Positions 19,382 to 55,574 are shown, counted from the first letter of the stretch. The stretch: DNA of 64,000 nt from a bacterium (GCA_029945665.1 JAQSCZ010000122.1:1868-65867); one strand, 5' to 3'. Program-made: numbers and translations. The notes: generated from the sequence alone by a model not told the origin.

Positions 19382-19385
19382 TCCA

Positions 19386-21782: not shown

Positions 21783-22612
21783 TATTTAGACACTAGAGTA
21801 TTTACTAAAATTGAGAAGGTAACGAGTACTTGCACGATATTAATGATAAATACATTATCCCGAATACTTTCAGCAACAGGTCTTCTAACTGGTTCAATAT
21901 ATATAATATCGTCTGGTTTCAAGCTTATAATAGAATTTTTCATATCAGCAATTGTCCTCAAATTCACAATTTTAATTTCAGGATCTTTTAAATCCCCACG
22001 AATTATTCTGATATTGTAACCTTTTGAATTGTTATCAATTCCACCATACAAAGCAATTGCCTCTAAAAGGTTCATAGTTGGACTTGCAAAAGGGATAACT
22101 TGGCCGCCCTTACCGCCCAGAAAAATAATTTTTTTGTTTGCAACTTTAGAAATAACATAAACTTCGTTGTAATAGCTTTCATACTTAGCAGAGAGTAAAC
22201 TATCTAATTGAGATATTTTTAGGCCGAACACTTTTTGCTTACCAATTACGGGAAAATGACACATTCCATCAACAGATACTTCAAAAGATGGCTTATCAAT
22301 TGATACTGTATTTGCGTCACCAAAAGTAGAAGTAGCAATAAGTTTACCAGATGGATCAATGATTGATTCTCCAGAATTCGTATACAAGGTAAACTGAATT
22401 TTATCACCAACTTTTATAGGATAATCAATGATGGTTTTTTGATATTCTGATTTCCAATTTACTTCTTCATTTTCAGCTTTCAACAATACATTGGAAGTAT
22501 AAGATTTACAACCTGAAAAAAGAAAAATTGCTGCAATTAAAAAACCAACTGAATGCAATAATTTTACAATTGAATTGTCGGGCAAAGCTTTCGCTATTTT
22601 TTGAGGCTTCAT
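21782..22612 (-). CDS. wza: Polysaccharide export outer-membrane lipoprotein (Wza-like, Poly_export/SLBB)
   Basis: Lipobox '...LFSGCKS'. Poly_export/SLBB-like sequence. Overlaps wzc by 1 nt. Confidence 0.8.
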
Positions 22613-23472
22613 TTTTTTAATAGTTTAATTAAATATTCTCCATATCCGCTTTTTATAAGCGGCAAGGCAATTTTCTCTAATTGGGCACCATCAATATAAC
22701 CCATTCGCCATGCAACTTCTTCAATGCTTCCAATTTTCCAACCTTGGCGTTCTTCTATCACTTGAACAAACTGGCCGGCTTGCATAAGACTATTAAAAGT
22801 ACCAGTATCCAACCAGGCAGTTCCACGCTGCAATATTCCAACTTTTAATTTTCCTAGTCTCAAATATTCTTTGTTAACATCCGTAATCTCATACTCACCA
22901 CGTGGCGATGGCTTTAAATTTTTGGCTATTTCTACCACATCATTATCATAAAAATACAAACCAGGTACAGCATAATTAGATTTTGGTTCAAGGGGTTTTT
23001 CTTCAATGCTTATGGCCACATTATTTTCATCAAACTCAACAACGCCATATCTTTCTGGATCGCTCACATGATAGGCATAAATTACACCACCAGTTGGGTT
23101 GTTGTTAGATTGCAGGAGTGATTGAAGTGACGAACCAAAGAAAATATTATCTCCTAAAATAAGGGCCACTTTTTCTTTGCCAATAAACTTCTCTCCAATT
23201 ACAAATGCTTGCGCTAAACCATTGGGTATGGCTTGTTCTGCATAGGTAAATTCGCAACCTAATTGTTTACCATCCCCTAATAATTTTTGAAAATGCGGTA
23301 AATCATGCGGTGTTGATATAATTAATATTTCTTTAATACCTGCCATCATTAGTGTAGATAACGGATAGTAAATCATTGGTTTATCATAAACAGGCATCAT
23401 TTGTTTACTAATGGCAAGTGTTAATGGATGTAATCTGGTTCCACTGCCGCCCGCTAATATTATTCCTTTCAT
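22609..23472 (-). CDS. rfbA: Glucose-1-phosphate thymidylyltransferase
   Basis: '[18 protein letters not shown]' N-terminus. 287 aa. Confidence 0.95.
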
Positions 23473-23492
23473 GTGTATTATATCTTTAATTT

Positions 23493-24548
23493 TTATCTAC
23501 TTGCATACATGGCTTGATAGTATTGCTGGTAGTTGCCAGTGGTAACATTCGTAAGCCAATCTTGATTGGATAGATACCAATCTACTGTTTTTTCTAACCC
23601 TTGCTCAAATGTAACGGAGGGCTCCCATCCCAATTCATTCATTAGTTTACTTGCATCGATGGCATATCTAAAATCATGACCCGCTCTGTCAGTCACATAG
23701 CTAATTAATTTTTCAGATTCGCCTAGTTCTCTTCCTAATTTATGATCCATCAGTTGACATAGAAATTTCACCAATTGGATATTTTGCCATTCGTTATTCC
23801 CACCAATATTGTATGTTTCACCATTTCTTCCTTTGTGAAAAATATCGTCAATAGCACGCGCATGATCCTCAACAAATAACCAATCTCTCACATTTTCACC
23901 TTTGCCATAAACAGGAAGTGGTTTATTGTGCATGATATTGTTTATCATTAATGGGATTAATTTTTCAGGAAAATGATGAGACCCATAATTATTGCTACAG
24001 TTAGATATTTTCACCTGCATTCCATAGGTATGGTGATAGGCTCTCACAAAGTGATCGCTTGAAGCTTTTGAGGCTGAATAAGGTGAATTAGGGCTATATG
24101 CTGTGGTTTCCAAAAATTTACCCTCATCTCCTAGTTGACCATATACCTCATCGGTGCTTACATGGTAAAATATTTTATCCGCAAATTGATTGTGCCATAT
24201 ACTTTTAGCCGCATTCAATAAATTTACTGTTCCAACAACATTAGTTAATACAAACTCAAGCGGATTTGAAATAGAACGGTCAACATGCGATTCTGCTGCT
24301 AAATGAATAACGGCATCAAATTGAAGATTATGAAACAACTGATTGATAAAATCTCCATCTGTAATATCCCCTTTAACAAAATGATAATTTGATTTATTTT
24401 CTACATCTTTAAGATTCTCGAGATTACCCGCGTAGGTTAATTTATCTAAATTATATATTTCATATTCAGAATAATTATTTACGAACCTGCGAACCACATG
24501 CGAGCCAATAAAACCGGCTCCTCCAGTTATTAATATTTTTTTTGTCAT
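23493..24548 (-). CDS. rfbB: dTDP-glucose 4,6-dehydratase
   Basis: '[15 protein letters not shown]' Rossmann fold, the '[10 protein letters not shown]' catalytic YxxxK, 351 aa. Confidence 0.95.
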
Positions 24549-24569
24549 AGCAAATACTTTAAATGTTAT

Positions 24570-25364
24570 TTATAATAAATCCTCAAGATACATATCAAAT
24601 ATTAAAGTAGCATTTGGTGGTATTACTCCGGGATATCCCTTTTCGCCATAAGCTAGGTATGCTGGTATAATTACTCTAACCTTCATTCCTTTATTCATCA
24701 AAGGCAATATCTCTATCCAACCACCAATAACGCCTGCGCCAACTACTGGCAATTTAAAAGGTTCAAAAGTTCCGAAATTACCATCGAATTTTACCCCATT
24801 TTCCAAATATCCTGCATAATAAATCATGGCGGTTTGACCTTCTTTTGCTTTGTTGTTTTTATCGCCTGGGCTGATTACAATATATTTGAGCCCAGATTTT
24901 AATTTCACGGTATCTTTCCCTTTTCCACTGTATGCTGTATATGCAACAGGCTTTTTAACATTCACCAACTCAACTTCGAATATCAAAGTTGAATTCGGTG
25001 GTATATCGCCTAAATCTTGACTGCCATAGCCTAAGCCCGAGGGGATAATTAAGGTTGCTGTCTCACCTGTTTTCAAATAAGAAAAACCTTCATCCCAGCC
25101 AGGAATTACTTGCTGAGCACCAAGTGTAAAAGAAAAAGTTTGATTGCGGTCTTTTGAACTATCAAATTTTTTGCCGTTGGTTAATGTACCGGTATAATGC
25201 GCTTCAATTTGATCTCCAGCAGCAGGCACAATGCCTTTTGGATTCTTTTTAGTTATTACATACCGTAAGCCAGTTTTGGTTGTAACAGTGTCATTTTTTA
25301 CACCCTCGGCATTTATTAAACCGAAAGCCATCATTAACAATAAAAGGTTGATCGTTTTTTTCAT
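24570..25364 (-). CDS. FKBP-type peptidyl-prolyl cis-trans isomerase, two FKBP domains, secreted
   Basis: Signal peptide. Two FKBP modules ('HYTGTLTNGKKFDSS...LIFEVELV' and 'IYYAGYLENGVKFDGN...LIFDMYL'). Confidence 0.85.
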   Translation of the reverse strand: MKKTINLLLLMMAFGLINAEGVKNDTVTTKTGLRYVITKKNPKGIVPAAGDQIEAHYTGTLTNGKKFDSSKDRNQTFSFTLGAQQVIPGWDEGFSYLKTGETATLIIPSGLGYGSQDLGDIPPNSTLIFEVELVNVKKPVAYTAYSGKGKDTVKLKSGLKYIVISPGDKNNKAKEGQTAMIYYAGYLENGVKFDGNFGTFEPFKLPVVGAGVIGGWIEILPLMNKGMKVRVIIPAYLAYGEKGYPGVIPPNATLIFDMYLEDLL

Positions 25365-26234
25365 TTATTCTACTTTTAAAATATTTATTTCATAAACAAG
25401 GGTTGAAAATGGGGGAATCATTAAATCTACACCTTTGGCTCCAAAACCTAAGTCGTAGGGCAAAATAAAGGTGGCTTTTTCACCCGCTTTCATTTTAAGT
25501 AACATATCAAACATTCCAACAGGTTGGAACTGTTCGCGCGTTACTCTGATAATTTGTGGTTGTCCCATGGTATAGGTGTTATAGAACTCTGTATCATCAA
25601 ACAATTTGCCAATAAAATGAAATTTAACAATGCTATTTTCATGAATAAATTTAGCAGTATCTGCATTGGCTTTTGCATGAAATTGAGAGCGAATACCCGT
25701 TGAGGAATCAAGTTCCATTGTTAATCCTTTACGCTTGGTATAGGCAATAATGTTTTCTACCTCAGCATTCCAACGGACAATTTTTTCGGTATTGATTACA
25801 CTATCTACTTGGTATTTATTCATTTTTCTATCCATTTTAATGATAAATTTCAAATCACTGCCAGGTTTAATATAATTGGGAAGCGACATTTCCATTCGCG
25901 TTTTATAGAAAAAGGAATCAGCATTTATTAAAAATTGTGCACTATCACCTTCGGCCAGTATACCTAGCGCTTCCATGATATCACCTCCCTTATGGGTTGG
26001 CATTACCAGTAGTATTCTATCTGGGGTTCTATTAAAGTTACTATAAACCACAGAGTCTTCCGAATTTGTTATGCTATAATAACATTGCAAATAATCGCCA
26101 ATGGAAGGCAGGGTTGTTTTTTCTCCTCGCTTTAGGAATTTAAAACGCAATCCACTTTCTGTTTTTGAATACTTGCCACAAGCACTCAAACCGATAAAAA
26201 CGGCAATAAGTATGCTGAATTGATATTTATGCAT
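25365..26234 (-). CDS. FKBP-type peptidyl-prolyl isomerase lipoprotein (GldI-like candidate)
   Basis: Lipobox 'IGLSACGK'. C-terminal FKBP domain '...FILPYDLGFGAKG...LVYEINILKV'. Tandem with the preceding FKBP gene. F. johnsoniae GldI is an FKBP lipoprotein; orthology is not established. Confidence 0.7.
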   Translation of the reverse strand: MHKYQFSILIAVFIGLSACGKYSKTESGLRFKFLKRGEKTTLPSIGDYLQCYYSITNSEDSVVYSNFNRTPDRILLVMPTHKGGDIMEALGILAEGDSAQFLINADSFFYKTRMEMSLPNYIKPGSDLKFIIKMDRKMNKYQVDSVINTEKIVRWNAEVENIIAYTKRKGLTMELDSSTGIRSQFHAKANADTAKFIHENSIVKFHFIGKLFDDTEFYNTYTMGQPQIIRVTREQFQPVGMFDMLLKMKAGEKATFILPYDLGFGAKGVDLMIPPFSTLVYEINILKVE

Positions 26235-27246
26235 TGAGTTCTTTTAGATATAATTTTAAACTATCTTTCACTTGTTGTATTGTTTCTTCCAATGAAGCGG
26301 TGCTGCTTCCACCTGCAGCATTAAAATGCCCGCCACCGTTAAAATGATTCCTAGCAAATGCATTGGCCGCAAAATCACCTTTACTTCTGAAACTCATCTT
26401 AACCAATTTTGTTCTATCGATAATCAAGATGGCAAATTTAATACCTTCTATGCCTAATCCATAATTTACCAATCCTTCTGTATCACCTGTTTGAATTTTA
26501 AATTGTTTTAATTCTTCTCTGTTAATACTAATGATGGCCGTTTTATATTCTCTTAAAATTTCTAATTTTTTATTTAGTGCATAGCCAATAAACCGCACGC
26601 GGTCTTCAGTAAAACTATCAAAAACCAGATCGTGTATTGCTACATGATCGATACCATAATCCATTAAATCAGCTGCTATTCTGTGTGTATTACTGCTGCA
26701 GTTACTATGTCTAAAAGACCCGGTATCTGTCATAATTCCAGTATAAAGACACGCCGCACAATCTTTATCAAGGTATTGATGATTATTACTTTCCACAATA
26801 AAACGGTAAACAAGTTCACAAGTACTGCTGGCTTTATCATCCCAATAGGTGAGTTGTTCGAAACCTTGAGGAAACTGATGGTGATCCATCAATATTTTTA
26901 TTGCATTGCTTTTACCTACTGCTTCTCCAAATTCGTTAATTCTTGACAGATCATTAAAATCAAGACAAAAAATAAAATCTGCATTCATAGCAAGCTCGGT
27001 AGCAACTTCCTCATTTTCCTCGAAAATTACAACCTCTTGGCTGCCTTTCATCCAATGTAAAAAAGACGCAAAATCTGTTGGTGTTACAACGGTTGAGTGG
27101 ATTCCATGATTTTTTAAAAAAATTTGTAAGCCAAGACTTGATCCCATTGCATCTGCATCGGGTTTATGATGCGTAGTGATAACAACCTTTGGGGAGTTAA
27201 TGGATTGAATTGCACGGAGAATATCTGAAGCTTGGTGATTTGACAT
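26227..27246 (-). CDS. nrnA: DHH/DHHA1 phosphoesterase (NrnA-type oligoribonuclease / pAp phosphatase)
   Basis: DHH motif 'HHKPDADAMGS' and the DHHA1 'GGGHFNAAGG' motif. Confidence 0.85.
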   Translation of the reverse strand: MSNHQASDILRAIQSINSPKVVITTHHKPDADAMGSSLGLQIFLKNHGIHSTVVTPTDFASFLHWMKGSQEVVIFEENEEVATELAMNADFIFCLDFNDLSRINEFGEAVGKSNAIKILMDHHQFPQGFEQLTYWDDKASSTCELVYRFIVESNNHQYLDKDCAACLYTGIMTDTGSFRHSNCSSNTHRIAADLMDYGIDHVAIHDLVFDSFTEDRVRFIGYALNKKLEILREYKTAIISINREELKQFKIQTGDTEGLVNYGLGIEGIKFAILIIDRTKLVKMSFRSKGDFAANAFARNHFNGGGHFNAAGGSSTASLEETIQQVKDSLKLYLKELNA

Positions 27247-27605
27247 TAATTTGAACTTGCAAATATGCTTAAATATACGTTATCTGTGGTATTTTTTTTC
27301 GCCCAAAAGGTCAGTTTTTACTGACCAATGGCTTATTTATAAGACATTCGTTTGGTCGAATATTTTATTTCGACCCTGTAAAAGCAAATTTAGCACCGAG
27401 GCCAAAGACTATTTTCAGTTTAATTATTCAAAATATTTGTTAAAACGGCGTATTAATGTTGAATTAACTTAATATTTCGCCCATACATATACTGCATAAA
27501 AAGCGTTTATATATCTGAATATGTGCGATTTACAAATTTATCCCCTTTTCAACTTGTTGATTTCTACACTTTTTTATATATTTCACTTTTAAAAACTACT
27601 AAACT

Positions 27606-28520
27606 TTGATTAAAAAATCATCTGTTTTTTTCCTTTTTTGTTTATTATTTATCTATTCCTGCTCGAAAAAAGAGGAAAAGATAATACCCAACAATGTGCC
27701 CTTAAATTATGAAGATGTTCCGACTGTAAAGGTAGAAAATTATATCAATAGAATATACATCGACCTATTAGGTCGTGAACCCTTAAACATAGAAAAAATA
27801 AGAGATGTAGCATTATTGCGCGATGGTAAATTAGGGTTTGATATCAGAAAACAATTGATCACAAGATTGATGACGGATTCGATATATGTACCTGGAGATT
27901 CTTCGTATAAAAGAGCCTATTACCAAAGATTATATGACTTATCAAAGGCTCGACTTTTAGAAGGTGCTGAAGACAACGAATTTGAAAGTCAAATTGGCAT
28001 TGCTCAATTTGGACTAATTTCTTCGCGTTTATTAGGGGATTCCATTGGTGTTTTCTCAGCCATGGTAACGATTGATAGATGCAAAAATGTTTTACGGGCT
28101 AGGAGAGCCTATCAATTAGGGCTTATTGACATTAATCAAATGTATGCATATATGCTAAACAATCCAATCTATGACGTTACCAATATGAATTCTCTCAATT
28201 TTGTAAATGCATCATTTGATGATTTGTTCTTTAGATTTCCAATACGTGATGAATTTAGTATTGCATTTGATATCATCGAAACAGGAAAAGGAGGCAGTTT
28301 GTTTGGAGGGTTTGCCTCGAACAAATCGGAATATTGCCAATTGCTCGTAGATTCAAGAGAGTTTCATGAAGGTATGATTAAGTGGTGCTATTTAGCGCTG
28401 ATTGGCAGAGAGCCAACAACTCAGGAAACCTATAATTTAATGGTTGATTATTACCCAACAAAGAATCTTCAAAAAGTACAAACCCTAATATTAATGACAG
28501 ATGAGTATGCGCATTTTTAA
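27606..28520 (+). CDS. Lipoprotein with two DUF1549/PSCyt2-like 'GREP(T)' motifs
   Basis: A TTG start gives MIKKSSVFFLFCLLFIYSCSKK (lipobox). Motifs 'RIYIDLLGREPLNIEKI' and 'CYLALIGREPTTQETYNLM' resemble the R-x-x-LDL-x-GL-PPT-x-EE motif I recall for DUF1549. Confidence 0.45.
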   Translation: MIKKSSVFFLFCLLFIYSCSKKEEKIIPNNVPLNYEDVPTVKVENYINRIYIDLLGREPLNIEKIRDVALLRDGKLGFDIRKQLITRLMTDSIYVPGDSSYKRAYYQRLYDLSKARLLEGAEDNEFESQIGIAQFGLISSRLLGDSIGVFSAMVTIDRCKNVLRARRAYQLGLIDINQMYAYMLNNPIYDVTNMNSLNFVNASFDDLFFRFPIRDEFSIAFDIIETGKGGSLFGGFASNKSEYCQLLVDSREFHEGMIKWCYLALIGREPTTQETYNLMVDYYPTKNLQKVQTLILMTDEYAHF

Positions 28521-29004
28521 AACACTTTTATCAGTTTTGTTTTTAATGCTCTTTTTGCAATGCACTAAGAATAAAAACACAAACTACGAAATTGTAGAAA
28601 CAGCCTCTTATGGGGATAATTTAAATAAAGACAAAGACAAAACAAATATTGAATTTCACAGTATTTTAAGCACAAATTTATTTCAAAAACCTTCATCAAT
28701 CAATGAGTTAACAAGAACTGATCGCGTGATTCAAAGTTGTGGTGATAAAACCTTAATCAACGAAGTCATTATTAGTAATTACATGAATTCAAATCAAGTA
28801 ATTTTACCAAGCAGACGAAGAATGATTGATAGCACTGAACGTTTTGTAGAAGAAACCTATATTAGATTTTTTATTAGACGACCAACCCAAGCAGAAAAAA
28901 CTTGGTTTATTAACTTTATTAACGCCAATGCATCTAATCCAAGTTTTCGCCCTGAATTGGTGTACACGGCATTTTCCGCCTCTGATGAATATATGTTTTA
29001 TTAA
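28501..29004 (+). CDS. Secreted/lipoprotein paralogous module with a third 'RRPTQAEK' motif
   Basis: Signal 'MSMRIFKTLLSVLFLMLFLQCTKN' and motif 'TYIRFFIRRPTQAEKTWFINFI'. Overlaps the upstream gene by 20 nt in another frame. Confidence 0.4.
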   Translation: MSMRIFKTLLSVLFLMLFLQCTKNKNTNYEIVETASYGDNLNKDKDKTNIEFHSILSTNLFQKPSSINELTRTDRVIQSCGDKTLINEVIISNYMNSNQVILPSRRRMIDSTERFVEETYIRFFIRRPTQAEKTWFINFINANASNPSFRPELVYTAFSASDEYMFY

Positions 29005-29025
29005 TTTTCCCAAAAGCAACATAAA

Positions 29026-30363
29026 ATGAAAAGAAGAGAATTTGTAAAGAAAACAGCCGCTTTAACAGCCGGAAGCCTAGTAATACCCTATATATTGCCT
29101 TCAGGAAGTTTATTTGCCCAAACCAACGCCCCATTGGCCGAACATGTTGTTTACGTTTTATTCGGCGGAGGATTAAGACAACAAGATTCCATCCTTCAGC
29201 GTTACTTAGCTGATAGTCAAAATTTTAATGTAGGCGGTAATATACTCTACAACATGCTAGAAGGAGCTCCACCAACGAGCAAAATCGCCTACGGCACAAC
29301 ACCTGCTGGGCAGCCGGACGGCATTCAACCGATACCTAAAATTTTATCCCAAACTCTTCAAAAACAAGGGACCATTTTTGCCGAAATGAGAGCTATTTCT
29401 GGTGGTCATTATGGAGGGCTAAATTCACTTATAACGGGTTCAAGAGTTGAAGGACAAGGCTTAAAAGTTCGACCAATAAATCCAACTGTTTTTGAATATG
29501 CCAGAAGATTTGGTGGTTTTAAAGCCACGGATACTTGGTTTATTGGAAACACCATCGGTAACTCTGTGCCTCTTCTGAATTCAAGTAAACATCCTGATTT
29601 TGGCTTAACCTATGGTGGCAATTTTTTTGCTCCCAATATAACTTTCGGAAGCGACGGTTACGCAGCACTCTCGAATGCAAAAATTTATCATCCACAAGAA
29701 GAACTTGAACCAATGTACAAAATGAAGAACTTTTTAGATAATTCATTTAACATAAAAAAAGGCGACATGCCAGGTATCCGCAATACTGATGCTGAACGAA
29801 CTCAAATAAAAGAATTCATAGCGAATACTTTCAAAAATCAAGCTTCAGGGCAGTTGCCAATGCCCCCAGTTAGTGGAGGCGATGGCACGACAATAGGTTA
29901 TGCAGCAGAAGTTCTTAAAGTTTTCAAACCTAAACTTCTGGTCGTTAATATGAGTAATATTGATGGTTGTCATGGCAATTTTACTGGCTATTTACAAGCC
30001 ATGCACAGAGCAGATCATGCCCTTGGTTTTCTTTGGAATTATATTCAATCAATTCCTGAAATGAAAGATAAAACAATTATGTGTTTTGTTCCAGAATGTG
30101 GTAGAAATTTAAAACACAATCCCATAATCGACCAAAATGATTGGTATGGTTACGACCATGGAGACGCCAACTCTTTGCGTGTATTTGGTGGCATGGTAGG
30201 ACCAAATGTTCAGAGTAACCTTATGGTTGGATCTGAATCTAATCCCATTGGTGTAGTTACTGATTTTAATTTAACCATTGCAGAAATTTTAGGTTATAAA
30301 AGCGATGTCATGGATGCGGGATTAATTGATGGCAATGCAAAAAGTTTATTTGATAGAATCTAA
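29026..30363 (+). CDS. Tat-secreted DUF1501 family (sulfatase/alkaline-phosphatase-like fold) protein
   Basis: Twin-arginine signal 'MKRREFVKKTAALTAGSLVIP...AQ'. ~445 aa. The size and Tat leader are typical of DUF1501 proteins, which are usually paired with DUF1549/DUF1553 or DUF1800 partners. Confidence 0.6.
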   Translation: MKRREFVKKTAALTAGSLVIPYILPSGSLFAQTNAPLAEHVVYVLFGGGLRQQDSILQRYLADSQNFNVGGNILYNMLEGAPPTSKIAYGTTPAGQPDGIQPIPKILSQTLQKQGTIFAEMRAISGGHYGGLNSLITGSRVEGQGLKVRPINPTVFEYARRFGGFKATDTWFIGNTIGNSVPLLNSSKHPDFGLTYGGNFFAPNITFGSDGYAALSNAKIYHPQEELEPMYKMKNFLDNSFNIKKGDMPGIRNTDAERTQIKEFIANTFKNQASGQLPMPPVSGGDGTTIGYAAEVLKVFKPKLLVVNMSNIDGCHGNFTGYLQAMHRADHALGFLWNYIQSIPEMKDKTIMCFVPECGRNLKHNPIIDQNDWYGYDHGDANSLRVFGGMVGPNVQSNLMVGSESNPIGVVTDFNLTIAEILGYKSDVMDAGLIDGNAKSLFDRI

Positions 30364-30365
30364 AT

Positions 30366-31319
30366 ATGAATCGATACAAATATATTGGTCTAATTTTTTG
30401 TTTGTTAGCATTTGTTGCTTGCAAAAAAAATAGTAATAAAAGTAATCCATTTGATGATTGGACAACTACTAGTCGCGGTTCTGTTATGCAAGATCTAGCT
30501 ATTGATCCAAATACCATTGAAGGGCTGCATAAAAATATATTTAAACCAACTTGTGCTAACAGTGGTTGTCATGATGGAAATTTTGAACCAGATTTTAGAA
30601 GTGTTGAGAGCTCTTATAATTCTTTATTGAATCGAATGGCAACTAATACTGACCCTCAAAATGCGCAATATGCTAAGCGCGTGGTTCCAGGTGATGCTGC
30701 CAGCAGTATGTTGTTGCATAGATTAACTACATTTATTCCTGGATCACAGGGGGTGATGCCACTTTCATTAGAACCTACGAGTGATTGGGTTGTTAAGAAA
30801 AGTCAGTATTTAGAGAACATTAAAAACTGGATTAATGACGGCGCAAAAGACCAATTTGGCAACAGCGCTTTAAGTACTGATTTTCCGCCTCAAATGGCAG
30901 GAATTATAGCCTTTGCAGATGGCTCAGTAACTCCCCTTCCGCATAGTGGATATAATCCAATTGAAATTCCTTCAGGTACTTCTAGTATTAAAATTATGGT
31001 GGCTTACACCGATGACAAAACGCCAGTCAATCAATTTGGAACAACTACGCTTAATTATTCTTTAAATCCGAATAATTACTCAGGTGCCGAGACCAACATG
31101 ACAGTAGAATCTTCTCCGTTTAATACCAAAGGATTTTCAAGTAGCAATGTAGATTACTGGCACAGTGTAACGCTTTCAGTTAGTACACTTGGTGCAGCCT
31201 TAAACGATGTTTTATGGATTAGAACGCAAACCACCGACAAAGTTAATTCGCCTGTTTATATTCCTTCCATTCCCGCTGCTTTCAACACAAAAAAATATTT
31301 TTCAATTCGCATTAATTAA
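30366..31319 (+). CDS. Lipoprotein with PSCyt1-like (planctomycete cytochrome c-like) domain carrying atypical CX4CH
   Basis: Lipobox 'LLAFVACKK'. The stretch 'IFKPTCANSGCHDGNFEPDF...RVVPGDAASSMLLHRL' parallels the PSCyt1 pattern (C..CH...VVPG.PE.SLL) but has four residues between the cysteines (30552-30572). Confidence 0.5.
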   Translation: MNRYKYIGLIFCLLAFVACKKNSNKSNPFDDWTTTSRGSVMQDLAIDPNTIEGLHKNIFKPTCANSGCHDGNFEPDFRSVESSYNSLLNRMATNTDPQNAQYAKRVVPGDAASSMLLHRLTTFIPGSQGVMPLSLEPTSDWVVKKSQYLENIKNWINDGAKDQFGNSALSTDFPPQMAGIIAFADGSVTPLPHSGYNPIEIPSGTSSIKIMVAYTDDKTPVNQFGTTTLNYSLNPNNYSGAETNMTVESSPFNTKGFSSSNVDYWHSVTLSVSTLGAALNDVLWIRTQTTDKVNSPVYIPSIPAAFNTKKYFSIRIN

Positions 31320-31783
31320 TGAAAAACAAATTTTTATATCGTCGATTTAATTTGCTTCCTATCTGCATTCTTATATTTCTAAGCAGTTGTAAAAAAGATG
31401 ACTCATTGAGTGGCAATAGCAAAGTGCCATTTATAAAAATGCTCGATGTTTCTTCAACAACAATTTTGCAATTTAAAGATAGTTTAGTCATTCGATTTGA
31501 ATACACAGATGGTGATGGTGATATCGGAGAACTAAATCCTGATGAAAATGATTTACAGATAAAAGATAAAAGACTGAGTAAAGCTGACTATTATTTTATA
31601 AAACCTTTATCTCCTCCGGGATCTGATATCAAGACAAAAGGTATTATAGCAGTCCAAATGAAAAACACCTTTTTATTAGGCACTGCCAACAGCGAGACTA
31701 CTACTTTTGAATTGAAGCTCAAGGATAGAGCAGGCAATTGGAGCAATAGCATCATTACGCCAATAATTACCATTACAAAATAA
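31319..31783 (+). CDS. Small lipoprotein with DGDGDIG motif (paralog of 13562..14080)
   Basis: Lipobox 'LIFLSSCKKD'. Contains 'FEYTDGDGDIGELNPDEND' (31508-31528). Its start overlaps the upstream stop (TAATG) and it ends 1 nt before the adhesin gene. Confidence 0.5.
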   Translation: MKNKFLYRRFNLLPICILIFLSSCKKDDSLSGNSKVPFIKMLDVSSTTILQFKDSLVIRFEYTDGDGDIGELNPDENDLQIKDKRLSKADYYFIKPLSPPGSDIKTKGIIAVQMKNTFLLGTANSETTTFELKLKDRAGNWSNSIITPIITITK

Positions 31784-34700
31784 TTGAATACTTTTTTCAA
31801 ATATCGTACATTATTGGGTGCTTTTTTAGATAACAAGATAGCGCTTTTTCTGCTGTCATTACTAAGTATACTACCGACATATTTAGCAGCACAAACTACT
31901 TATAAAATGAGTAACAATAAGGTTTATGACTGCAGAGGAAAGTTAATTGATAGCGAGGGTAATAAAGTAAATACAAGCTGGTATGCCAGCAATGAGGATT
32001 TTATATTCACAATTTCTGTGAGTGGTGCCAGTAAAATTAATATCAAATTTACAAATCCATTCAATGTCGAAGCAGGCTCAGATTTTTTAAAGGTATACAG
32101 TGGTAAGGATACTTTTTCAGGATTCATAAAAAAGTATGATAACAACAACAAACCTTCAGGTACTATTTCTGTAACAGATAGTTGTATCACATTTTATTTT
32201 CATTCTGATAAATATGTCAATGGCGATGGATTTGAACTCAGCTGGGAAGCAAAAATAACTTCCGTTCCTCAGCCAAAATTTACACCCATTACTAATCCTA
32301 ATTGCAACACTAATAAAATTCGCATTATACTTGATCAAAAATTTAATTGCGACTCAGTGAAGGCAAAAAATTTTAAATTATCAGGCACCTTAACAACTGC
32401 CGTGAGCAATGCCGTTGGCGTTGGGTGTGATGGTAAAAATGAAAGCAATACTTTTGACATTTCATTTGCTTCAGCCTTAAATCAAAGTGGTAATTATGTA
32501 CTTGATTTTAATTCTACTTTCAAAGATCAATGTGATAGTATTTGGAAAATAAACGCAAAATTAAATTTCAAAATTACAGATTGCCCCATCAAGGTGGTAC
32601 TTAAAAGTACAAAAGATACCCTCTGCACAGGTGCATGTGCAACACTTACAGCAACAATAACAGGTGGAAATTCAGCAAACTACACTTACACTTGGTTTAG
32701 CGGCACCTTAACGGGCAAACCACCTCATATTATTTGCCCGACTATTAACACAAGATACATTTTGGAAGTTTCGGATGGCGTGTCTATACCCGGGCGTGAC
32801 ACGATAGATATTATTGTTTTGACACCTCCTGTTGCGCAAAATGACACAACGGTTTGTCAATCGAGTGGACCATTTAATTTAATGGCCAATCCCACCGGTG
32901 GCAAATGGTCGGGCACTGGAATCACAAATGCAAGCAATGGAACTTTTAATCCATCTATTTCTGGCAGCGGTATTTTTAATATTACTTACCAAAATGGAAA
33001 ATGTAGTGATATTGTTGTTGTTACCGTTAAAGCAATAAATGCAGGACCACCAAATGCCGCATGCCCAAGCAGTGCAGCCTTTATGGTTAGTAATTTTTCA
33101 CCAACAGGAGGTACTTGGAGTGGACCCAATATTAATGCTTTAGGAATTATTACACCTCCTGCCAGTATAGGAACTTTTCAAGTAACATACACATGGAATG
33201 GTTGTACGGCCAAAAAAGACATCAATATAGATGGTATAAGTATAAAAAAATACGATACAATTTGTAAATCTGTTCCTTATGATACAATTTTATTTACACC
33301 TGCAGGCGGAAATTGGACTGGCCCAGGAATTTCTAATACACGATTAGGGATTAGTATACCTTACAATGCTGGTGCTGGAAATAAACTATATATATACACC
33401 ATTAATGGTTGTAAAGACACGCTTAAAAGATTCATTAAAGATGTTGATGCAAGATGGGATGAAATTGCTTGTCCAGATGCCGGACAAAGAACCTTGCCCG
33501 CTGGTATACCTACTGGTGGATTATGGTCTGGTAAAGGTATTTTCGATCCTGTCAATGGGATTTTTGATGCAGATAGTTTTCGGGTACCCGGTCAAAGCAC
33601 TTTTGTTCAAGTTAATTTAACCTATACAACCTTATCAGGCTGCAAAGACGATAAGATTATGTACCTGCGATACTCCCGCTTTTATAAAGATACTGTCAAA
33701 AATTGTGTCACGGATACGAGTTATTATTTGCGCTATCAATATGTTTTTAATGACCCTTGGAATTTGCTTTTTACTGGCAGTAATGCTATAATTGGCAATT
33801 CAATTTACTACCAAAAATTTAGTCCATCACTTGCTGGGAGAGGTACATATCATCAAATAATTGGAGATGGCAATGGCTGCAAAGACACAATTATAATTCA
33901 AATTTATCCAAGAGCCAAAATCCAAAATGATACTATTTTATGTATAGCAGATAATCCTTATCAGTTATACAATGCCGAAAAGAAAGGAACTTTTTCAGGC
34001 AAAGGCATAACAAATGGTGTTACGGGTATCTTTAATCCAGCTTTGGCAGGTTCAGGCACACATTTAATCATGTATAATCAGCCAGGTAAATGTCAAGATA
34101 CAATAAGGATTAAGGTCAATGCATTACCCATTGTGAAAATCAATGGATTGTCGCAATTCTATTGCTTTAGGGATACTATTATAACTGCTAATTTAACCCC
34201 TATAGGTGGCATATTTACTGGAGCAGGCACGAATGGAAATACATTTAATCCTAGAACTGCGGGCACCGGAATCCACAGAATGAAGTATGTTTTTGGAACA
34301 GGAAAGTGTATCAATCAAGATGTTTTAGATATTGAAATAGGAGATACTTTAAAACTAGACTTAATTAGCGATAAAGATACCATATGTATTGGGACAACAG
34401 TAACTTTAAATACCAAAGCTACAGGTGGCAGCAATAATTATGATTTAACTTGGAGCAGTGGACCAACCAATGTCAGTGCTATTTTCATTTCACCTAAAAA
34501 AACCACATTGTACACTGCAACGTTAAAAGATGGTTGTAGTGACTCTGTAGTTAAGCAAAAGTTAATATATGTGCATCCCCAAATGTATAGTAGCAGCAGT
34601 ACTAGTCCAATTCAATGCTATGGTAATCAAGGTTTCATAAATCTAAAAATGAATGGAACTGGTCCTTTTTCATATCTTTGGAATACGATTCCACCACAAA

Positions 34701-35344
34701 CCAATGCTATAATAAATGCCCCTGTCAATAATACTTACAAAGCAACCATAACCAATACTTCCACTGGTTGTAAATATGATACAAGTCTGCAAATTCCCGG
34801 ATACAACGCGATAAGAGCCTATTTTACTTTCTCTCCAAATGACAGATGTTTATACAGTAACAATGCTGAATTGCAGATTATTAATCTAAGTGATGGCGGC
34901 ATAACCGGAACCTGGGATTTTGGAGATGGCACAATTATTCCTTATGATCCAGCTACCAATCCAAGTCACTTATACGACGGATTAAAAGAAAATTATAAAG
35001 TAAAACTAACGATATCTAATAGTGGTAATTGTATTGATAGTTTTTATGTTAATATCTGTGTAATTGATACCGTTACTATCATATTGCCTACAGCATTTAC
35101 CCCAAATGATGACGAGATGAATGATATTTTTAGAATTGAATCCACTTCTATTTCTAAATCGACAATGGCTATTTTTAATAGATGGGGTGAAAAAGTATTT
35201 TACAGTGAAGATTCAAAAATTGGGTGGAATGGAACCTACCAAGGGAAACCATGCCCTACAGACTATTATGTTTATTATATTAGCTATAAAGGAAAAAAAA
35301 CTGCAACACGTTACACAAAAGGTGTCTTGTTTTTAATACGGTGA
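31784..35344 (+). CDS. Giant T9SS type-B CTD (gliding-motility-associated C-terminal domain) cell-surface protein with N-terminal CUB-like domain, ~9 Cys-bracketed Ig-like repeats and a PKD domain
   Basis: Signal peptide. CUB-like domain 'CRGKLIDSEG...SGFIKKYDNN...GDGFELSWEA' (~31930-32260). Repeats of the form C-x(8-12)-P-x-GG-x-W[ST]G-x-GI-x(15-30)-C. PKD domain 'GTWDFGDGTIIPYDPATNPSHLY'. C-terminal 'LPTAFTPNDDEMNDIFRI...IFNRWGEKVFYSED...GWNGTYQGK' is the type-B/CHU_C sorting domain. Confidence 0.8.
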   Translation: MNTFFKYRTLLGAFLDNKIALFLLSLLSILPTYLAAQTTYKMSNNKVYDCRGKLIDSEGNKVNTSWYASNEDFIFTISVSGASKINIKFTNPFNVEAGSDFLKVYSGKDTFSGFIKKYDNNNKPSGTISVTDSCITFYFHSDKYVNGDGFELSWEAKITSVPQPKFTPITNPNCNTNKIRIILDQKFNCDSVKAKNFKLSGTLTTAVSNAVGVGCDGKNESNTFDISFASALNQSGNYVLDFNSTFKDQCDSIWKINAKLNFKITDCPIKVVLKSTKDTLCTGACATLTATITGGNSANYTYTWFSGTLTGKPPHIICPTINTRYILEVSDGVSIPGRDTIDIIVLTPPVAQNDTTVCQSSGPFNLMANPTGGKWSGTGITNASNGTFNPSISGSGIFNITYQNGKCSDIVVVTVKAINAGPPNAACPSSAAFMVSNFSPTGGTWSGPNINALGIITPPASIGTFQVTYTWNGCTAKKDINIDGISIKKYDTICKSVPYDTILFTPAGGNWTGPGISNTRLGISIPYNAGAGNKLYIYTINGCKDTLKRFIKDVDARWDEIACPDAGQRTLPAGIPTGGLWSGKGIFDPVNGIFDADSFRVPGQSTFVQVNLTYTTLSGCKDDKIMYLRYSRFYKDTVKNCVTDTSYYLRYQYVFNDPWNLLFTGSNAIIGNSIYYQKFSPSLAGRGTYHQIIGDGNGCKDTIIIQIYPRAKIQNDTILCIADNPYQLYNAEKKGTFSGKGITNGVTGIFNPALAGSGTHLIMYNQPGKCQDTIRIKVNALPIVKINGLSQFYCFRDTIITANLTPIGGIFTGAGTNGNTFNPRTAGTGIHRMKYVFGTGKCINQDVLDIEIGDTLKLDLISDKDTICIGTTVTLNTKATGGSNNYDLTWSSGPTNVSAIFISPKKTTLYTATLKDGCSDSVVKQKLIYVHPQMYSSSSTSPIQCYGNQGFINLKMNGTGPFSYLWNTIPPQTNAIINAPVNNTYKATITNTSTGCKYDTSLQIPGYNAIRAYFTFSPNDRCLYSNNAELQIINLSDGGITGTWDFGDGTIIPYDPATNPSHLYDGLKENYKVKLTISNSGNCIDSFYVNICVIDTVTIILPTAFTPNDDEMNDIFRIESTSISKSTMAIFNRWGEKVFYSEDSKIGWNGTYQGKPCPTDYYVYYISYKGKKTATRYTKGVLFLIR

Positions 35345-35369
35345 TAAGTCATAATTAAGTAATGGATTT

Positions 35370-35903
35370 TTGCTTAATTTTGAGAACATTATGAAATTCA
35401 AAAGCATTTTAAACAAATCATTAATGGTATTTGGCATACTATTAATTCTCATACAATTCGTTGGAACTGAAAAAAATGAAAGTGATATAAAAACAAATAG
35501 TATTGCCAATAAATATGCTATCCCAAACAACATTCAACTAATACTTACGACAGCTTGCTATGACTGCCACAGCAATAAAACAATTTACCCATGGTATGCT
35601 AAGTTACAGCCTGTAGCTTGGTGGTTAAACGACCACATAGTAGAAGGTAAGAGCAAATTTAACTTTGATGAATTTACTAGCTACCCGTTGTATAGACAAT
35701 ATCACAAATTAGAAGAAGTGGTTGAAGAAGTGGAGGAAGGTGAAATGCCGCTTTCTTCTTATACCATCATTCATAGGAATGCAAATTTAACAGATGGTCA
35801 AAAAACTGAATTAATTAACTGGGTAAAAGGAATTCGCACGACTATGGAAACCACTTATCCTGCAGATAGCCTTATAAATCCTAAAAAAAGGAAACAATCT
35901 TAA
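35370..35903 (+). CDS. Heme-binding-domain (CXXCH) small secreted/membrane-anchored protein
   Basis: N-terminal hydrophobic anchor. 'TTACYDCHSNKTIYPWYAKLQPVAWWLNDHIVEG' (CYDCH at ~35557-35571) resembles the Bacteroidetes haem-binding domain family. Confidence 0.55.
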   Translation: MLNFENIMKFKSILNKSLMVFGILLILIQFVGTEKNESDIKTNSIANKYAIPNNIQLILTTACYDCHSNKTIYPWYAKLQPVAWWLNDHIVEGKSKFNFDEFTSYPLYRQYHKLEEVVEEVEEGEMPLSSYTIIHRNANLTDGQKTELINWVKGIRTTMETTYPADSLINPKKRKQS

Positions 35904-35997: not shown

Positions 35998-36744
35998 ATG
36001 TCCATTTCTGTAATAATAATTGCCAAAAACGAAGCTGATAATTTAAGAATATCACTTCCCAAGTTACATTGGTGCGACGATATTATACTCATTAACGACC
36101 AAAGCACGGATGGCACTGTTGAAGTGGCCGAAGAATTTGGATGTAAAATATACAATCGCGTATTTGATGGCTTTGGTACACAAAAGCAATTTGCGGTAAG
36201 CAAAACCAAGTATGAATGGGTATTGAATATCGATGCTGATGAGGTGATAAGCGATGCGTTAATTGCTGAAATTTTGGCTTTAAAACTTACTTCGAATCAA
36301 ATAGCTGGCTATATGTTGCCAATACAACATGTATTTTTAGGCAAAGTTTTTAAATATGGCAAAGAGAGCAAATTTTACCATCTGCGCCTCTTTAATAAAA
36401 CCCTAGGAAATTTTGATCATGCAAAAGTGCACGAAAAAGTAAAGTTAAATGGCATAACCATGCGGTTAGAAAATATCATTTTGCACTATAGTTATAAAGA
36501 CCTCAAGCATTATTTTGAAAAATTCAATCAATATACTACTATTGGCGCTATCAAATTGAAAGATAAAGGTAAAAGTCGCAACCTATTTTTAACTGTTGCA
36601 AGCTTCCCATTTTATTTTTTAAAACATTATTTTATTTATGGCAATATTTTGAATGGCCAATCGGGGTTTATTTGGAGTTATTTAAATGCGTGGTATCATG
36701 TTGTTAAATATTTAAAATTACACGAATTAAATGTTAAGCAATGA
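35998..36744 (+). CDS. Glycosyltransferase family 2
   Basis: 'ISVIIIAKNEADNL', 'DQSTDGT', 'LNIDADE' (GT-A DxD). Confidence 0.8.
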   Translation: MSISVIIIAKNEADNLRISLPKLHWCDDIILINDQSTDGTVEVAEEFGCKIYNRVFDGFGTQKQFAVSKTKYEWVLNIDADEVISDALIAEILALKLTSNQIAGYMLPIQHVFLGKVFKYGKESKFYHLRLFNKTLGNFDHAKVHEKVKLNGITMRLENIILHYSYKDLKHYFEKFNQYTTIGAIKLKDKGKSRNLFLTVASFPFYFLKHYFIYGNILNGQSGFIWSYLNAWYHVVKYLKLHELNVKQ

Positions 36745-37451
36745 GTGGACTTAGGGTTTTAATGTATCATAAAGTTTCGGCTTCTGAAAATGACTTTCTT
36801 ACAGTTACAGTCGAACAAATTACCACACAACTGGTATGGCTGCAAGAACGTTATAATTTTATCACCCTTCATGATTTATTGCAGTATATTGATAATAAAA
36901 AAGCACTCCCTACCAAAGCGTTACTCATTACTTTCGATGATGGTTATTTAAATAATTACACCTTGGCCTATCCTATTTTCAAACGACTTAAAATTCCGTT
37001 TTCAATATTTTTAATAGGGGATTTTATTGGTCGAACGATTGAACACGATGGACAAGAACAAATATTTTTAAACAGTAATCAATTATTAGAAATGAGAGAT
37101 TTTGTGCAATATGGATACCACAGTAATTCGCATACAAATCTAATGGCAATAAATTCTGAATTATGGGAAACTGAGGTTGCAAATTGTGTTAAGACATTTA
37201 AAAATTTACCTATTGAAATTGAACCTGCATGGGCTTATACGTATGGGGGCTTTCCAAAGAAAAACTTTAAACATTTTCAATATTTAAAAAAAATCTTCGC
37301 AGACCAAGGTATCCACTCTGCCTTTCGGATTGGCAATAGAATTAATAAAAAAGAATTAATAGACCCTTATGCCATTGAAAGGCTTGATATAAGAGGGGAC
37401 GATTCATTTTTTAAATTCAAATTAAAAGTCAAAATAGGCAAACTATTTTAA
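36741..37451 (+). CDS. Polysaccharide deacetylase (NodB/CE4) family protein
   Basis: 'LLITFDDGYLNNYTLAYPIFKRLKIPFSIF' NodB motifs 1-2. Overlaps the GT2 gene by 4 nt. Confidence 0.75.
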   Translation: MSGLRVLMYHKVSASENDFLTVTVEQITTQLVWLQERYNFITLHDLLQYIDNKKALPTKALLITFDDGYLNNYTLAYPIFKRLKIPFSIFLIGDFIGRTIEHDGQEQIFLNSNQLLEMRDFVQYGYHSNSHTNLMAINSELWETEVANCVKTFKNLPIEIEPAWAYTYGGFPKKNFKHFQYLKKIFADQGIHSAFRIGNRINKKELIDPYAIERLDIRGDDSFFKFKLKVKIGKLF

Positions 37452-55572: not shown

Positions 55573-55574
55573 TG

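Follow-up and report, generated by a model that had tools for sequence, protein, structure and literature searches.

A co-inherited six-gene cassette of uncultured Bacteroidota predicted to encode an envelope module with a Tat-signal protein, a PSCyt1-type lipoprotein and a T9SS cargo protein

Within a 64,000-nt stretch of bacterial DNA (GCA_029945665.1, JAQSCZ010000122.1:1868-65867; hereafter the window), six consecutive genes, g1 to g6 (27606-35344), form a co-inherited unit whose order and strand are kept across 80 species-level loci as far as the contigs reach. We consider it rather likely that they constitute an operon encoding a self-contained envelope module of uncultured aquatic and soil Bacteroidota, a distant and rearranged counterpart of the DUF1501-PSCyt modules. 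The parts of this module would be a Tat-exported, metalloenzyme-like g3, a PSCyt1-type g4, scaffold-like g1 and g2, a presumably calcium-binding g5, and a T9SS-delivered g6 (Table 1). Our reference modules are those of Planctomycetes, Verrucomicrobia, and Lentisphaerae, in which a DUF1501 protein with a Tat signal is encoded beside PSCyt proteins, often with binding domains, an arrangement that has been described but not explained (Kamneva et al. 2012, PMC3542564; He et al. 2017, PMC5615132).

Table 1. Genes of the cassette and the gene that follows it (window positions)
Gene	Position	Strand	Product and features
g1	27606-28520	+	304 aa; lipoprotein, lipobox Cys19; DUF4214/phycobilisome-linker-like helical units; first cassette gene
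g2	28501-29004	+	167 aa; lipoprotein, lipobox Cys21; DUF4214-like helical units
g3	29026-30363	+	445 aa; twin-arginine signal MKRREFVKK; alkaline-phosphatase-superfamily fold; probably a distant DUF1501 relative
g4	30366-31319	+	317 aa; lipoprotein, Cys19; PSCyt1-type cytochrome c-like domain, then C-terminal beta-sandwich
g5	31319-31783	+	154 aa; lipoprotein, Cys24; motif Y-x-D-x-(D/N)-G-D-x-G
g6	31784-35344	+	1186 aa; signal peptide, CUB, Ig-like repeats, PKD, T9SS type-B sorting domain; last cassette gene
g7	35370-35903	+	177 aa; Haem_bd (PF14376), CYDCH; outside the conserved cassette

The ORF listing gives seven consecutive plus-strand genes in 27606-35903 rather than the nine reported in the initial annotation, a count that is reached only by adding a GT2 glycosyltransferase gene (g8, 35998-36744) and a deacetylase gene (g9, 36741-37451), both past 35903 and beyond a 94-nt gap. 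Read from the sequence, g1 and g2 overlap by 20 nt, g2 and g3 lie 21 nt apart, and g4 and g5 share 1 nt in a TAATG. Of three overlaps claimed earlier, this last one, at 31319, is real, whereas g5 and g6 (31783/31784) abut with a gap of zero given the TTG start of g6, and g3 and g4 (30363/30366) are separated by 2 nt (TAAATATG) and therefore do not overlap. The g6 start is itself uncertain, with TTG at 31784 and the NCBI record placing it at 31814; for g1, the start in that record (27696, 274 aa) would cost the protein its conserved signal peptide.

Co-inheritance is seen directly in the synteny. Counting only those of the 80 loci whose contig extends far enough, g1 is present in 64 of 64, g2 in 76 of 76, g4 in 72 of 72, g5 in 66 of 68, and g6 in 60 of 60, and all six genes were found in 65 loci; on two short contigs (L019 and L028), g4 is present and is not followed by g5 and g6. 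The encoded proteins have diverged to 30-60% identity, yet order, strand, lengths, and overlapping junctions are kept: the lengths of all six genes are nearly constant between loci, the g3/g4, g4/g5, and g5/g6 junctions are predominantly 4-nt overlaps, and a 20-nt overlap is the most frequent g1/g2 junction among 68 loci. The flanks vary, with the most widely shared gene family reaching at most 14 of 62 loci upstream and at most 11 of 50 downstream. That the packing is a local accident of genes with unrelated functions might be argued from g1-g5, which have no annotated function and on all five of which Pfam is silent, but this synteny already refutes such a reading, which we regard as extremely improbable. 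The initial annotation's view of a tightly coupled unit is thus borne out for g1-g6, which are syntenic rather than dispersed in other genomes. Of 66 loci, 24 have a TAnnTTTG -7 box 30-50 nt ahead of g1. Relatives of the cassette's core protein occur in more than 550 species-level genomes, and the whole cassette survives intact in dozens and probably hundreds of species of uncultured Bacteroidota.

The genes that follow do not share this history. As annotated, g7 encodes a CXXCH heme-binding protein (Haem_bd, E 2.7e-46; motif CYDCH), but its proposed coupling to the cassette fails, as no g7 homolog lies beside the cassette in any of the 50 loci that extend 6.2 kb or more past g3; g8 and g9 were likewise never found there (0/50). 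The distance from g6 to g7 is 25 nt to a TTG start, 46 nt to an ATG at 35391, and 79 nt to the start in the NCBI record, and a Bacteroidetes-type -7 box, TAATTTTG, is located at 35375-35382, between g6 and the g7 starts, meaning that g7 may have its own promoter. We conclude that g7, g8, and g9 are unrelated neighbors of the cassette. The heme-associated system suggested in the initial annotation does not hold as far as it includes the CXXCH protein, and surface capture or oxidation is at most a candidate function.

The initial annotation had named Pfam searches as the decisive check on its domain assignments. These searches gave no significant DUF1549, PSCyt1, DUF1501, DUF1553, or DUF1800 match on the window proteins, the outcome by which the annotation had asked to be refuted, and no Pfam family reaches threshold on g1-g5 of the window; of the remaining models, CHU_C (PF13585) was found on g6 and Haem_bd on g7. 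More sensitive comparisons nevertheless recover part of the proposal. For g4, PSCyt1 (PF07635, gathering cut-off 22 bits) matched none of 40 orthologs at E<=10. When the N-terminal domain alone (residues ~45-170, ahead of the beta-sandwich at ~175-317) was compared with true PSCyt1 domains by hhalign, it matched those of Emticicia (96.3%, E 1.6e-9) and Singulisphaera (90.3%, E 1.5e-6), and on this profile evidence it is homologous to PSCyt1 cytochrome domains, upholding the earlier call of a CX4CH PSCyt1-like domain. Both a heme attachment motif and a distal ligand are present, since C63-x4-C68-H69 (C63-ANSG-C68-H69 in the window) and M131-P132 are invariant in orthologs, with the motif being CX4CH rather than CXXCH; a CX4CH variant, CAMSGCHD, also occurs in a protein that passes PF07635. 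A fold search did not confirm a cytochrome fold in g4, its matches being dominated by the beta-sandwich. We describe g4 as consisting of a PSCyt1-type cytochrome c domain, probably with a single heme, and an Ig-like domain. Its best profile match, Emticicia oligotrophica WP_015031189.1 (a 240-aa "c-type cytochrome domain-containing protein" on plasmid NC_018749, L083:6806-7528), is also a small, lipoprotein-like Bacteroidota protein with the motif C-A-x-S-G-C-H-D, and it opens with a genuine PSCyt1 domain (43.7 bits). In the place taken by the beta-sandwich in g4, it carries another cytochrome domain, with CXXCH, and its neighbors are Rieske, DUF5777, YceI, and ccsA genes rather than a g1-g6 cassette.

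The two helical lipoproteins had been read as DUF1549-like fragments sharing a GREPT motif. The motif is present in g1 (LIGREPTT, alongside LLGREPLN), whereas g2 has RRPTQAE instead. Among 40 orthologs of each, g1 has an invariant Cys19 and conserved LGREP, FRFPT..EF, and TDEYA.F motifs, and g2 an invariant Cys21 and a conserved C-terminal unit, R.PT..E...F...PE.VY.AF..SDEY.FY, whose homolog in g1 is the middle unit (hhalign 78%, E 1.7e-5). Matches to DUF4214 and phycobilisome linkers recur across these orthologs, the window copies themselves falling below threshold: PBS_linker_poly matches 27 of 40 g1 orthologs (best E 1e-8), DUF4214 matches 24 of 40 g1 and 23 of 40 g2 orthologs (best E for g2 3.6e-6), and the g1 profile finds the REP domains of ApcE in the PDB at E 9e-6. 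Like DUF4214 (PF13946) and the phycobilisome linker REP domain (PF00427; ApcE), both proteins show a helical "..LGR.P...E......(S/T)(D/x)EY" repeat, although most of their matches are sub-threshold and confined to single units; in contrast to phycobilisome linkers, they are lipoproteins of a nonphotosynthetic phylum, and nothing suggests that they bind phycobiliproteins. As judged from these profiles, g1 and g2 are DUF4214/phycobilisome-linker-like repeat lipoproteins, not DUF1549 or DUF1553 proteins, and they probably serve as protein-protein scaffolds.

These assignments bear on the arrangement first proposed for the region, a nine-gene, heme-centered operon in which a planctomycete PSCyt1-PSCyt2(DUF1549)-PSD1(DUF1553) protein has been split around a DUF1501 gene and coupled to Haem_bd. 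The PSCyt1-like g4, a g3 that can be linked to DUF1501, and a genuine Haem_bd gene 25-79 nt downstream of g6 speak for it, as does a weak PSCyt2 match in 17 of 40 g1 orthologs, though every one of these is below threshold and covers the N-terminal "LDLLGR.P..E" motif only; the window copy of g1 reaches 14.6 bits where the cut-off is 29.8. Against it, hhalign of g1 and g2 with true PSCyt2-PSD1 proteins gave just 3.6% and 1.0%, the best local match being a short motif at the PSD1 C-terminus, and DUF4214 and the phycobilisome linker match better. PSCyt2 was absent from all 40 g2 orthologs, PSD1 matched 1 of 40 g1 orthologs (E 0.089), and DUF1800 (PF08811) matched none of the 40 g1 and 40 g2 orthologs at E<=10. 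With g7-g9 missing beside the cassette in all 50 loci and a -7-box-like motif preceding g7, this arrangement is largely refuted for g7-g9 and for its DUF1549 and DUF1553 parts, and we consider it quite improbable as a whole.

The g3 protein carries a twin-arginine signal and has an alkaline-phosphatase (AP)-superfamily fold, so that much of its annotation as a Tat-DUF1501 protein stands, but DUF1501 itself (PF07394, gathering cut-off 27 bits) gave no match to g3 of the window at E<=1 and matched 1 of 28 orthologs (E 0.034), in the same Pfam search that scores true DUF1501 proteins at 285-485 bits. A profile built from g3 orthologs only reaches 6.6% against DUF1501 in hhalign, whereas one enriched with intermediates reaches 97.9% (E 3.9e-13, 361 columns), with other AP-family proteins matching g3 better. 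One such intermediate, P0275, matches the g3 profile at E 9.7e-41 and scores 28.6 bits on PF07394. Relatives of g3 thus appear to bridge it to DUF1501, a link for which the intermediate sequences are needed, and by the profiles g3 is no more distant from other AP-family proteins than from DUF1501, among them unmodeled "alkaline phosphatase family" proteins of Fulvitalea (99.4%) and Acaryochloris (100%). Classical sulfatase (AslA, 6%) and PhoA (0.2%) went undetected by g3 sequence profiles. In contrast to AP-superfamily enzymes such as phosphonate monoester hydrolase, PhoK, PafA, S1 sulfatases, and NPP, g3 has, as read from the alignment and not from a structure, glycine (G-G) at the first metal-binding Asp of the superfamily and His128 at the nucleophile position, suggesting that it may not be a classical hydrolase.

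The lipoprotein g5 has the expected DGDGD motif (YTDGDGDIGE in the window) and, in 40 orthologs, invariant C24, D64, G67, D68, G70, D83, R85, and D90. It has no sequence match in Pfam or the PDB, and its motif points to a probable calcium-binding protein, small and rich in beta structure. As described earlier, g6 is a CUB/PKD type-B T9SS protein, with Pfam and NCBIfam matches to CUB (E 1.7e-7), PKD (2.4e-5), CHU_C (5e-17), and TIGR04131 (3.6e-17) and a run of Cys-paired Ig-like repeats; its C-terminal domain scores 62.3 bits on TIGR04131 (cut-off 35) and 62.2 bits on CHU_C (cut-off 27). A full-length alignment of 56 sequences (55 orthologs and the window) has 135 columns conserved at 95% or more, including about 30 cysteines; g6 is a one-to-one orthologous T9SS type-B cargo protein. 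Sorting signals are also seen in the other products: the lipobox Cys is invariant in the g1, g2, g4, and g5 families. These lipoproteins may face either the surface or the periplasm, the strict C-X-K-(D/E)2 export signal (PMC5080379) being carried by just 2-9 of the 40 orthologs in each family. The organism also encodes a PorK/GldK-like protein.

With SprB-like type-B cargo (TIGR04131/CHU_C), g6 shares its C-terminal domain, Ig-like and SprB-like repeats, and PKD. In another reading, g6 would be the functional product, a SprB-like surface adhesin or filament, with g1-g5 acting as its dedicated assembly, anchoring, or modification factors and g3 acting not as a catabolic hydrolase but as an LtaS/EptA/MCR-1-like transferase that places a phospho-alcohol on a lipid, a glycan, or g6. 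We find this unlikely. The g3 protein lacks a membrane domain of the LtaS or EptA kind, the flanking families of the loci include no conserved SprF/PorP-like partner gene beside g6, it is hard to see what a cytochrome-like lipoprotein would contribute to the assembly of an adhesin, and related PVC modules lack T9SS altogether (PMC3542564). Unlike SprB-like cargo, g6 has an N-terminal CUB and is a fixed member of a cassette whose six products include a Tat enzyme and a cytochrome-like lipoprotein.

Returning to the envelope module that we favor, we tentatively propose a mode of action that seems possible though far from assured. At the cell surface, g6 would capture a macromolecular or particulate substrate; the outer-membrane lipoproteins would keep the g3 enzyme, which would be periplasmic or associated with the outer membrane, together with the g4 heme protein; and jointly these would act on a phospho- or sulfo-ester-type group of the captured substrate by hydrolysis or redox processing. 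A bolder and more doubtful proposal is that of an envelope machine, previously undescribed and widespread, in which the T9SS-delivered surface protein hands captured substrate or electrons to an outer-membrane lipoprotein platform bearing a covalent-heme PSCyt1 cytochrome and a Tat-exported, nucleophile-less AP-fold metalloenzyme, making it an extracytoplasmic redox or hydrolytic system. Were this so, the chemistry of the cassette would reveal the role of DUF1501-PSCyt modules in Planctomycetes and Verrucomicrobia.

The likeness to those modules, of which one on a Singulisphaera plasmid (NC_019893, locus L084) is an example, lies in a gene for a Tat-signal AP-superfamily protein adjoining one for a PSCyt1-domain protein, and in partners with binding or Ig-type domains. 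The cassette differs in its host phylum, Bacteroidota, in having two DUF4214/PBS-linker-like lipoproteins in place of PSCyt2 and PSD1, and in window proteins that fail the Pfam models of these families. It also has a fixed calcium-motif lipoprotein and a T9SS-secreted CUB/Ig protein of ~1180 aa, and its cytochrome domain is carried by a small lipoprotein that also has an Ig-like domain, not by a protein of 800-1000 aa. Since their description, DUF1501-PSCyt modules, which have multiplied greatly in Planctomycetes and Verrucomicrobia, have gone without an assigned function, a problem that a version as compact as six genes could help to approach. The hosts of the cassette are abundant freshwater, wastewater, and soil Bacteroidota. 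The cassette is retained intact in at least 65 species-level genomes, and such strong conservation throughout the phylum of a unit that joins an enzyme with a Tat signal, a heme-type lipoprotein, and a T9SS surface protein points to an important envelope function. Pfam does not see five of the six families, which are annotated only as "hypothetical," and annotation pipelines miss the whole system. Finally, whereas the heme motif of DUF1501-PSCyt modules is CXXCH, the cassette indicates that PSCyt1-type domains can use a CX4CH motif.

Seven ORFs lie head-to-tail on the plus strand in 27606-35903 of the window, and the nine genes of the initial annotation are reached only if the downstream GT2 and polysaccharide deacetylase genes are added. 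Read from the sequence, g1 and g2 overlap by 20 nt (28501-28520), g2 and g3 are 21 nt apart, g4 and g5 share a 1-nt overlap in TAATG, and g6 follows g5 with a gap of 0; the overlap proposed at g3/g4 (30363/30366) proved to be a 2-nt gap. The g6/g7 spacing is 25-79 nt, according to the g7 start chosen. In the public record GCA_038205575.1 (MAG contig JBBRBR010000002.1), g1-g5 are all without annotation, g6 starts at 31814 and g7 at 35424, and g1 starts at 27696 (274 aa), 30 codons short. Such a start loses the lipobox Cys and signal peptide kept in 40/40 aligned orthologs, and the TTG at 27606 is to be preferred for g1.

Genes of the cassette (g1-g6) and their downstream neighbors (g7-g9). Presence is given as loci with the gene out of those, among the best 80, whose contig reaches far enough for it (tblastn).
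Gene	Position	Strand	Length (aa)	Presence	Remark
g1	27606-28520	+	304	64/64	
g2	28501-29004	+	167	76/76	
g3	29026-30363	+	445		
g4	30366-31319	+	317	72/72	
g5	31319-31783	+	154	66/68	
g6	31784-35344	+	1186	60/60	
g7	35370-35903	+	177		
g8 (GT2)	35998-36744				after 94-nt gap, outside 27606-35903
g9 (polysaccharide deacetylase)	36741-37451				outside 27606-35903

The g3 family comprises 924 homologs in a large protein collection, none with a precomputed Pfam domain and, among those shown, all named 'hypothetical protein' save one 'twin-arginine translocation signal domain-containing protein'. In a scan that took a single genome for each GTDB species, at least 557 stretches encode a g3 relative, and the best 80 of these loci, used here as the synteny sample, are Bacteroidota MAGs except for two labelled only 'bacterium' and 'Sphingomonadales'. 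When the window proteins were searched against these 80 loci by tblastn, g1-g2-g3-g4-g5-g6 kept order and strand wherever the contig was long enough, with the complete set of six seen in 65 loci; the genes are thus not dispersed, in keeping with the single unit initially proposed. Protein identity drops to 30-60% across the loci, gene lengths are near constant, and 4-nt overlaps make up the majority of junctions. The 20-nt overlap is the commonest g1/g2 junction (68 loci), and as it is unusually long and constant, it suggests translational coupling of the two genes.

The conserved unit is exactly g1-g6, since the flanking families vary and g7-g9 are never near the cassette elsewhere: clustering of flanking ORFs placed the most widespread neighbor in 14/62 upstream and 11/50 downstream loci, with none higher, and tblastn found g7 near the cassette in 0/50 loci and likewise never found g8 or g9. 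On two short contigs the cassette ends after g4, followed in one (L019:3958-5420) by two paralogous lipoproteins of ~197 aa and in the other (L028:6939-7655) by a 238-aa membrane protein with a HEFGH motif; these could be true truncated variants or assembly chimeras.

The Bacteroidetes-type -7 box has the consensus TAnnTTTG, and such a box lies 30-50 nt 5' of g1 in 24/66 loci. A box of this type, TAATTTTG, is also present in the window at 35375-35382, between g6 and g7, and the two positions would fit both an operon start at g1 and a transcript of its own for g7. Sigma-70 promoter-like sites numbered 31, fewer than the shuffle mean of 46.8; terminator-like sites, all on the minus strand, showed no enrichment (9 vs 6.8 in shuffles). 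Rfam matched no riboswitch or other RNA, either in the window or 5' of g1.

Pfam and NCBIfam searches of the window proteins confirmed the domains assigned to g6 and g7 but gave nothing significant for g1-g5, with g2 and g5 drawing no match; the family names proposed for these genes fail by this measure. For g3, named a DUF1501 protein, PF07394 did not match the window protein, and neither Pfam nor a PDB profile search gave a useful match. The g3 orthologs are 57-100% identical, with a near-invariant Tat motif, RREF(I/V)KK, and invariant residues that include G48, G49, R51, Q53, H128, D313, H316, H327, D330, H331, D377, H378 and D380. In a tblastn search of plasmids, every protein returned for g3 was labelled 'sulfatase-like' or 'alkaline phosphatase family', and none was annotated as DUF1501. 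Singulisphaera plasmid NC_019893 supplied the references, namely three DUF1501 proteins (285-485 bits) and two of PSCyt1-PSCyt2-PSD1 type; the g3 ortholog profile alone did not match DUF1501 (hhalign 6.6%).

Searched exhaustively by HMM, 1.84 billion cluster representatives yielded 886 g3 relatives, and the full-length distant ones carry weak Phosphodiest, Sulfatase or Metalloenzyme matches, or DUF1501 matches (6/45); one relative, P0275, matches the g3 profile at E 9.7e-41 and scores 28.6 bits on DUF1501, above the cut-off. A profile of g3 plus intermediates aligned to DUF1501 over 361 columns (hhalign 97.9%, E 3.9e-13), and the controls Escherichia coli AslA (6%) and PhoA (0.2%) were negative. 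Two proteins nevertheless matched better than DUF1501, one from Acaryochloris named 'sulfatase-like' (100%, E 8.5e-45) and one from Fulvitalea named 'alkaline phosphatase family' (99.4%, E 1.4e-21). We place g3 in an unmodelled, Tat-exported clade of the alkaline phosphatase (AP) superfamily, outside PF07394, with DUF1501 as a probable relative of this clade. In a colinear alignment, G-G appears where the superfamily has its first metal-binding Asp, and the nucleophile position appears to hold His128; the DUF1501 sequences also appear to have G-G and His at these positions. A distant g3 relative of 997 aa, P0344, has a C-terminal region with weak, sub-threshold multiheme cytochrome c7/c3 matches (E about 1e-3), a fusion that hints that the g3 enzyme clade may be linked to heme proteins elsewhere too.

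The description of g4 as a PSCyt1-like CX4CH lipoprotein holds by homology to true PSCyt1 domains, though not by any Pfam PSCyt1 match: Pfam matched 0/40 orthologs, with the window copy likewise lacking PSCyt1 (PF07635), and no PDB sequence matched. The stretch P-T-C63-A-N-S-G-C68-H69-D-G-x-F-E-P-D-F-R is invariant in 40 orthologs, as are R105-V106, P108, M131-P132, W155 and G159-A160, with G109 nearly so. A structural model (pLDDT 87) predicts a helical domain at ~45-170 and a beta-sandwich at ~175-317, and fold searches gave Ig/CBM-like matches to the sandwich only. Tblastn of the domain against plasmids returned nothing significant, but an E=6 match pointed to a genuine PSCyt1 reference, Emticicia WP_015031189.1. 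This protein passes PF07635 (43.7 bits) and carries C-A-M-S-G-C-H-D, the same CX4CH variant as g4, and in domain-only hhalign comparisons g4 matched the Emticicia PSCyt1 at 96.3% (E 1.6e-9) and the Singulisphaera PSCyt1 domains at 90.3% (E 1.5e-6). We infer that g4 may bind heme. In this 240-aa di-cytochrome protein, encoded on the Emticicia oligotrophica plasmid NC_018749 (region L083:4937-7528), the PSCyt1 CX4CH domain (CAMSGCHD) is followed by a CXXCH domain. Its gene is clustered with genes for a Rieske 2Fe-2S protein, a DUF5777 beta-barrel and YceI, with ccsA a few genes away, a different, apparently redox context for this PSCyt1 variant.

Both g1 and g2 contain repeated helical units, and the lipobox Cys of each is invariant. 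Among g1 orthologs, PBS_linker_poly was matched in 27/40 (best 1e-8), DUF4214 in 24/40 and PSCyt2 (DUF1549), more weakly and over a single motif, in 17/40; among g2 orthologs, DUF4214 was matched in 23/40 and PSCyt2 in 0/40. The g1 profile matched ApcE REP domains in the PDB (E 9e-6), g2 had no meaningful match in the PDB profile search, and window g1 scored 14.6 bits against Pfam PSCyt2, where the cut-off is 29.8. We class both as predicted DUF4214/linker-like lipoproteins because DUF4214 and PBS_linker matches recur, the two share a unit (hhalign 78%), and hhalign against true PSCyt2-PSD1 proteins gave only 3.6% for g1 and 1.0% for g2, so that their earlier reading as DUF1549-like fragments is not upheld. 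The 'GREPT' motif cited for that reading is a generic feature of the DUF4214/linker-like repeat and no evidence for DUF1549; the quoted motifs do occur in the window proteins, except that g2 carries RRPTQAE and not GREPT. A reading of g1 and g2 (471 aa jointly) as two halves of one DUF1800 or PSCyt2-PSD1 protein was rejected on the ortholog Pfam and hhalign comparisons, and a g1-g2 frameshift fusion, prompted by the conserved 20-nt overlap, was set aside as unlikely since g2 keeps its own lipobox Cys.

The lipoprotein g5 has invariant D64, G67, D68, G70, D83, R85 and D90 and no family match in Pfam, NCBIfam or the PDB profile search. In g6, Pfam and NCBIfam identify CUB (1.7e-7), PKD (2.4e-5), CHU_C (5e-17) and TIGR04131 (3.6e-17), and g6 and 55 orthologs (56 sequences) align end to end; 135 columns reach at least 95% conservation, ~30 cysteines among them. 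We see g6 as a fixed orthologous component of the cassette and not a random adhesin. The adjoining g7 matches Haem_bd (2.7e-46).

The predicted route of g3 is export in folded form via Tat, and for g1, g2, g4 and g5 a lipid anchor in the outer membrane is expected. Type-B T9SS cargo is secreted and then retained on the cell surface, and g6 should be secreted and kept there by this route. A 311-aa ORF at 53360-54295 (minus strand) matches PorK/GldK structures (E about 1e-5), consistent with type IX secretion or gliding machinery in the organism. The lipoprotein surface-export signal has been defined as C-X-K-(D/E)2 (PMC5080379); K at +3 is common in g1, g2, g4 and g5, with the strict signal in 2-9 of 40 orthologs per family.

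Among described systems, the nearest is the DUF1501 plus PSCyt1/PSCyt2/PSD1 module of Planctomycetes/Verrucomicrobia-type (PVC) bacteria, in which a Tat-signal DUF1501 protein lies beside cytochrome-motif proteins, often with carbohydrate- or protein-binding domains, and whose function is unassigned (PMC3542564; PMC5615132). Like that module, the cassette combines a Tat-exported protein of AP fold with a PSCyt1 domain and a partner that carries binding domains. It lacks PSCyt2 and PSD1, has two DUF4214-like lipoproteins, a CX4CH heme motif, a lipoprotein with a calcium motif and a cargo protein of the T9SS, and belongs to a different host phylum. No description of a cassette of this sort turned up in full-text literature searches by domain names. 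It is best filed as a conserved six-gene Bacteroidota variant among modules of the DUF1501-PSCyt kind. Support is good for the six-gene unit and for what its parts are; a capture-and-process mechanism for it is a tentative and rather doubtful proposal. Of the initial annotation, the co-inherited unit and the PSCyt1-type g4 stand, but the gene count, the Pfam family names and the coupling to g7 do not.

Elsewhere in the window, the GT2 and deacetylase genes (35998-37451) overlap by 4 nt, and in other genomes the pair does not accompany the cassette; the best NCBIfam match of the deacetylase is the PgaB N-terminal part, well below cut-off, and the two look like a small exopolysaccharide-modification pair. 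Upstream of the cassette, ~19000-27250 on the minus strand (L085:1-8221) holds capsule/EPS export genes (Wzz/GNVR tyrosine-kinase type, Poly_export), dTDP-sugar genes, two tandem FKBP-type isomerase lipoprotein genes and a DHH/DHHA1 phosphoesterase gene, and this flank recurs only in L001 and L003, the two closest relatives with contig upstream of g1. Finally, 54001-58000 has a GC content of 0.40 vs ~0.33 elsewhere, with no rRNA or tRNA by Rfam; its ORFs are ordinary protein genes, among them one of 681 aa that, by eye, we take to resemble a fused dehydrogenase E1 component.
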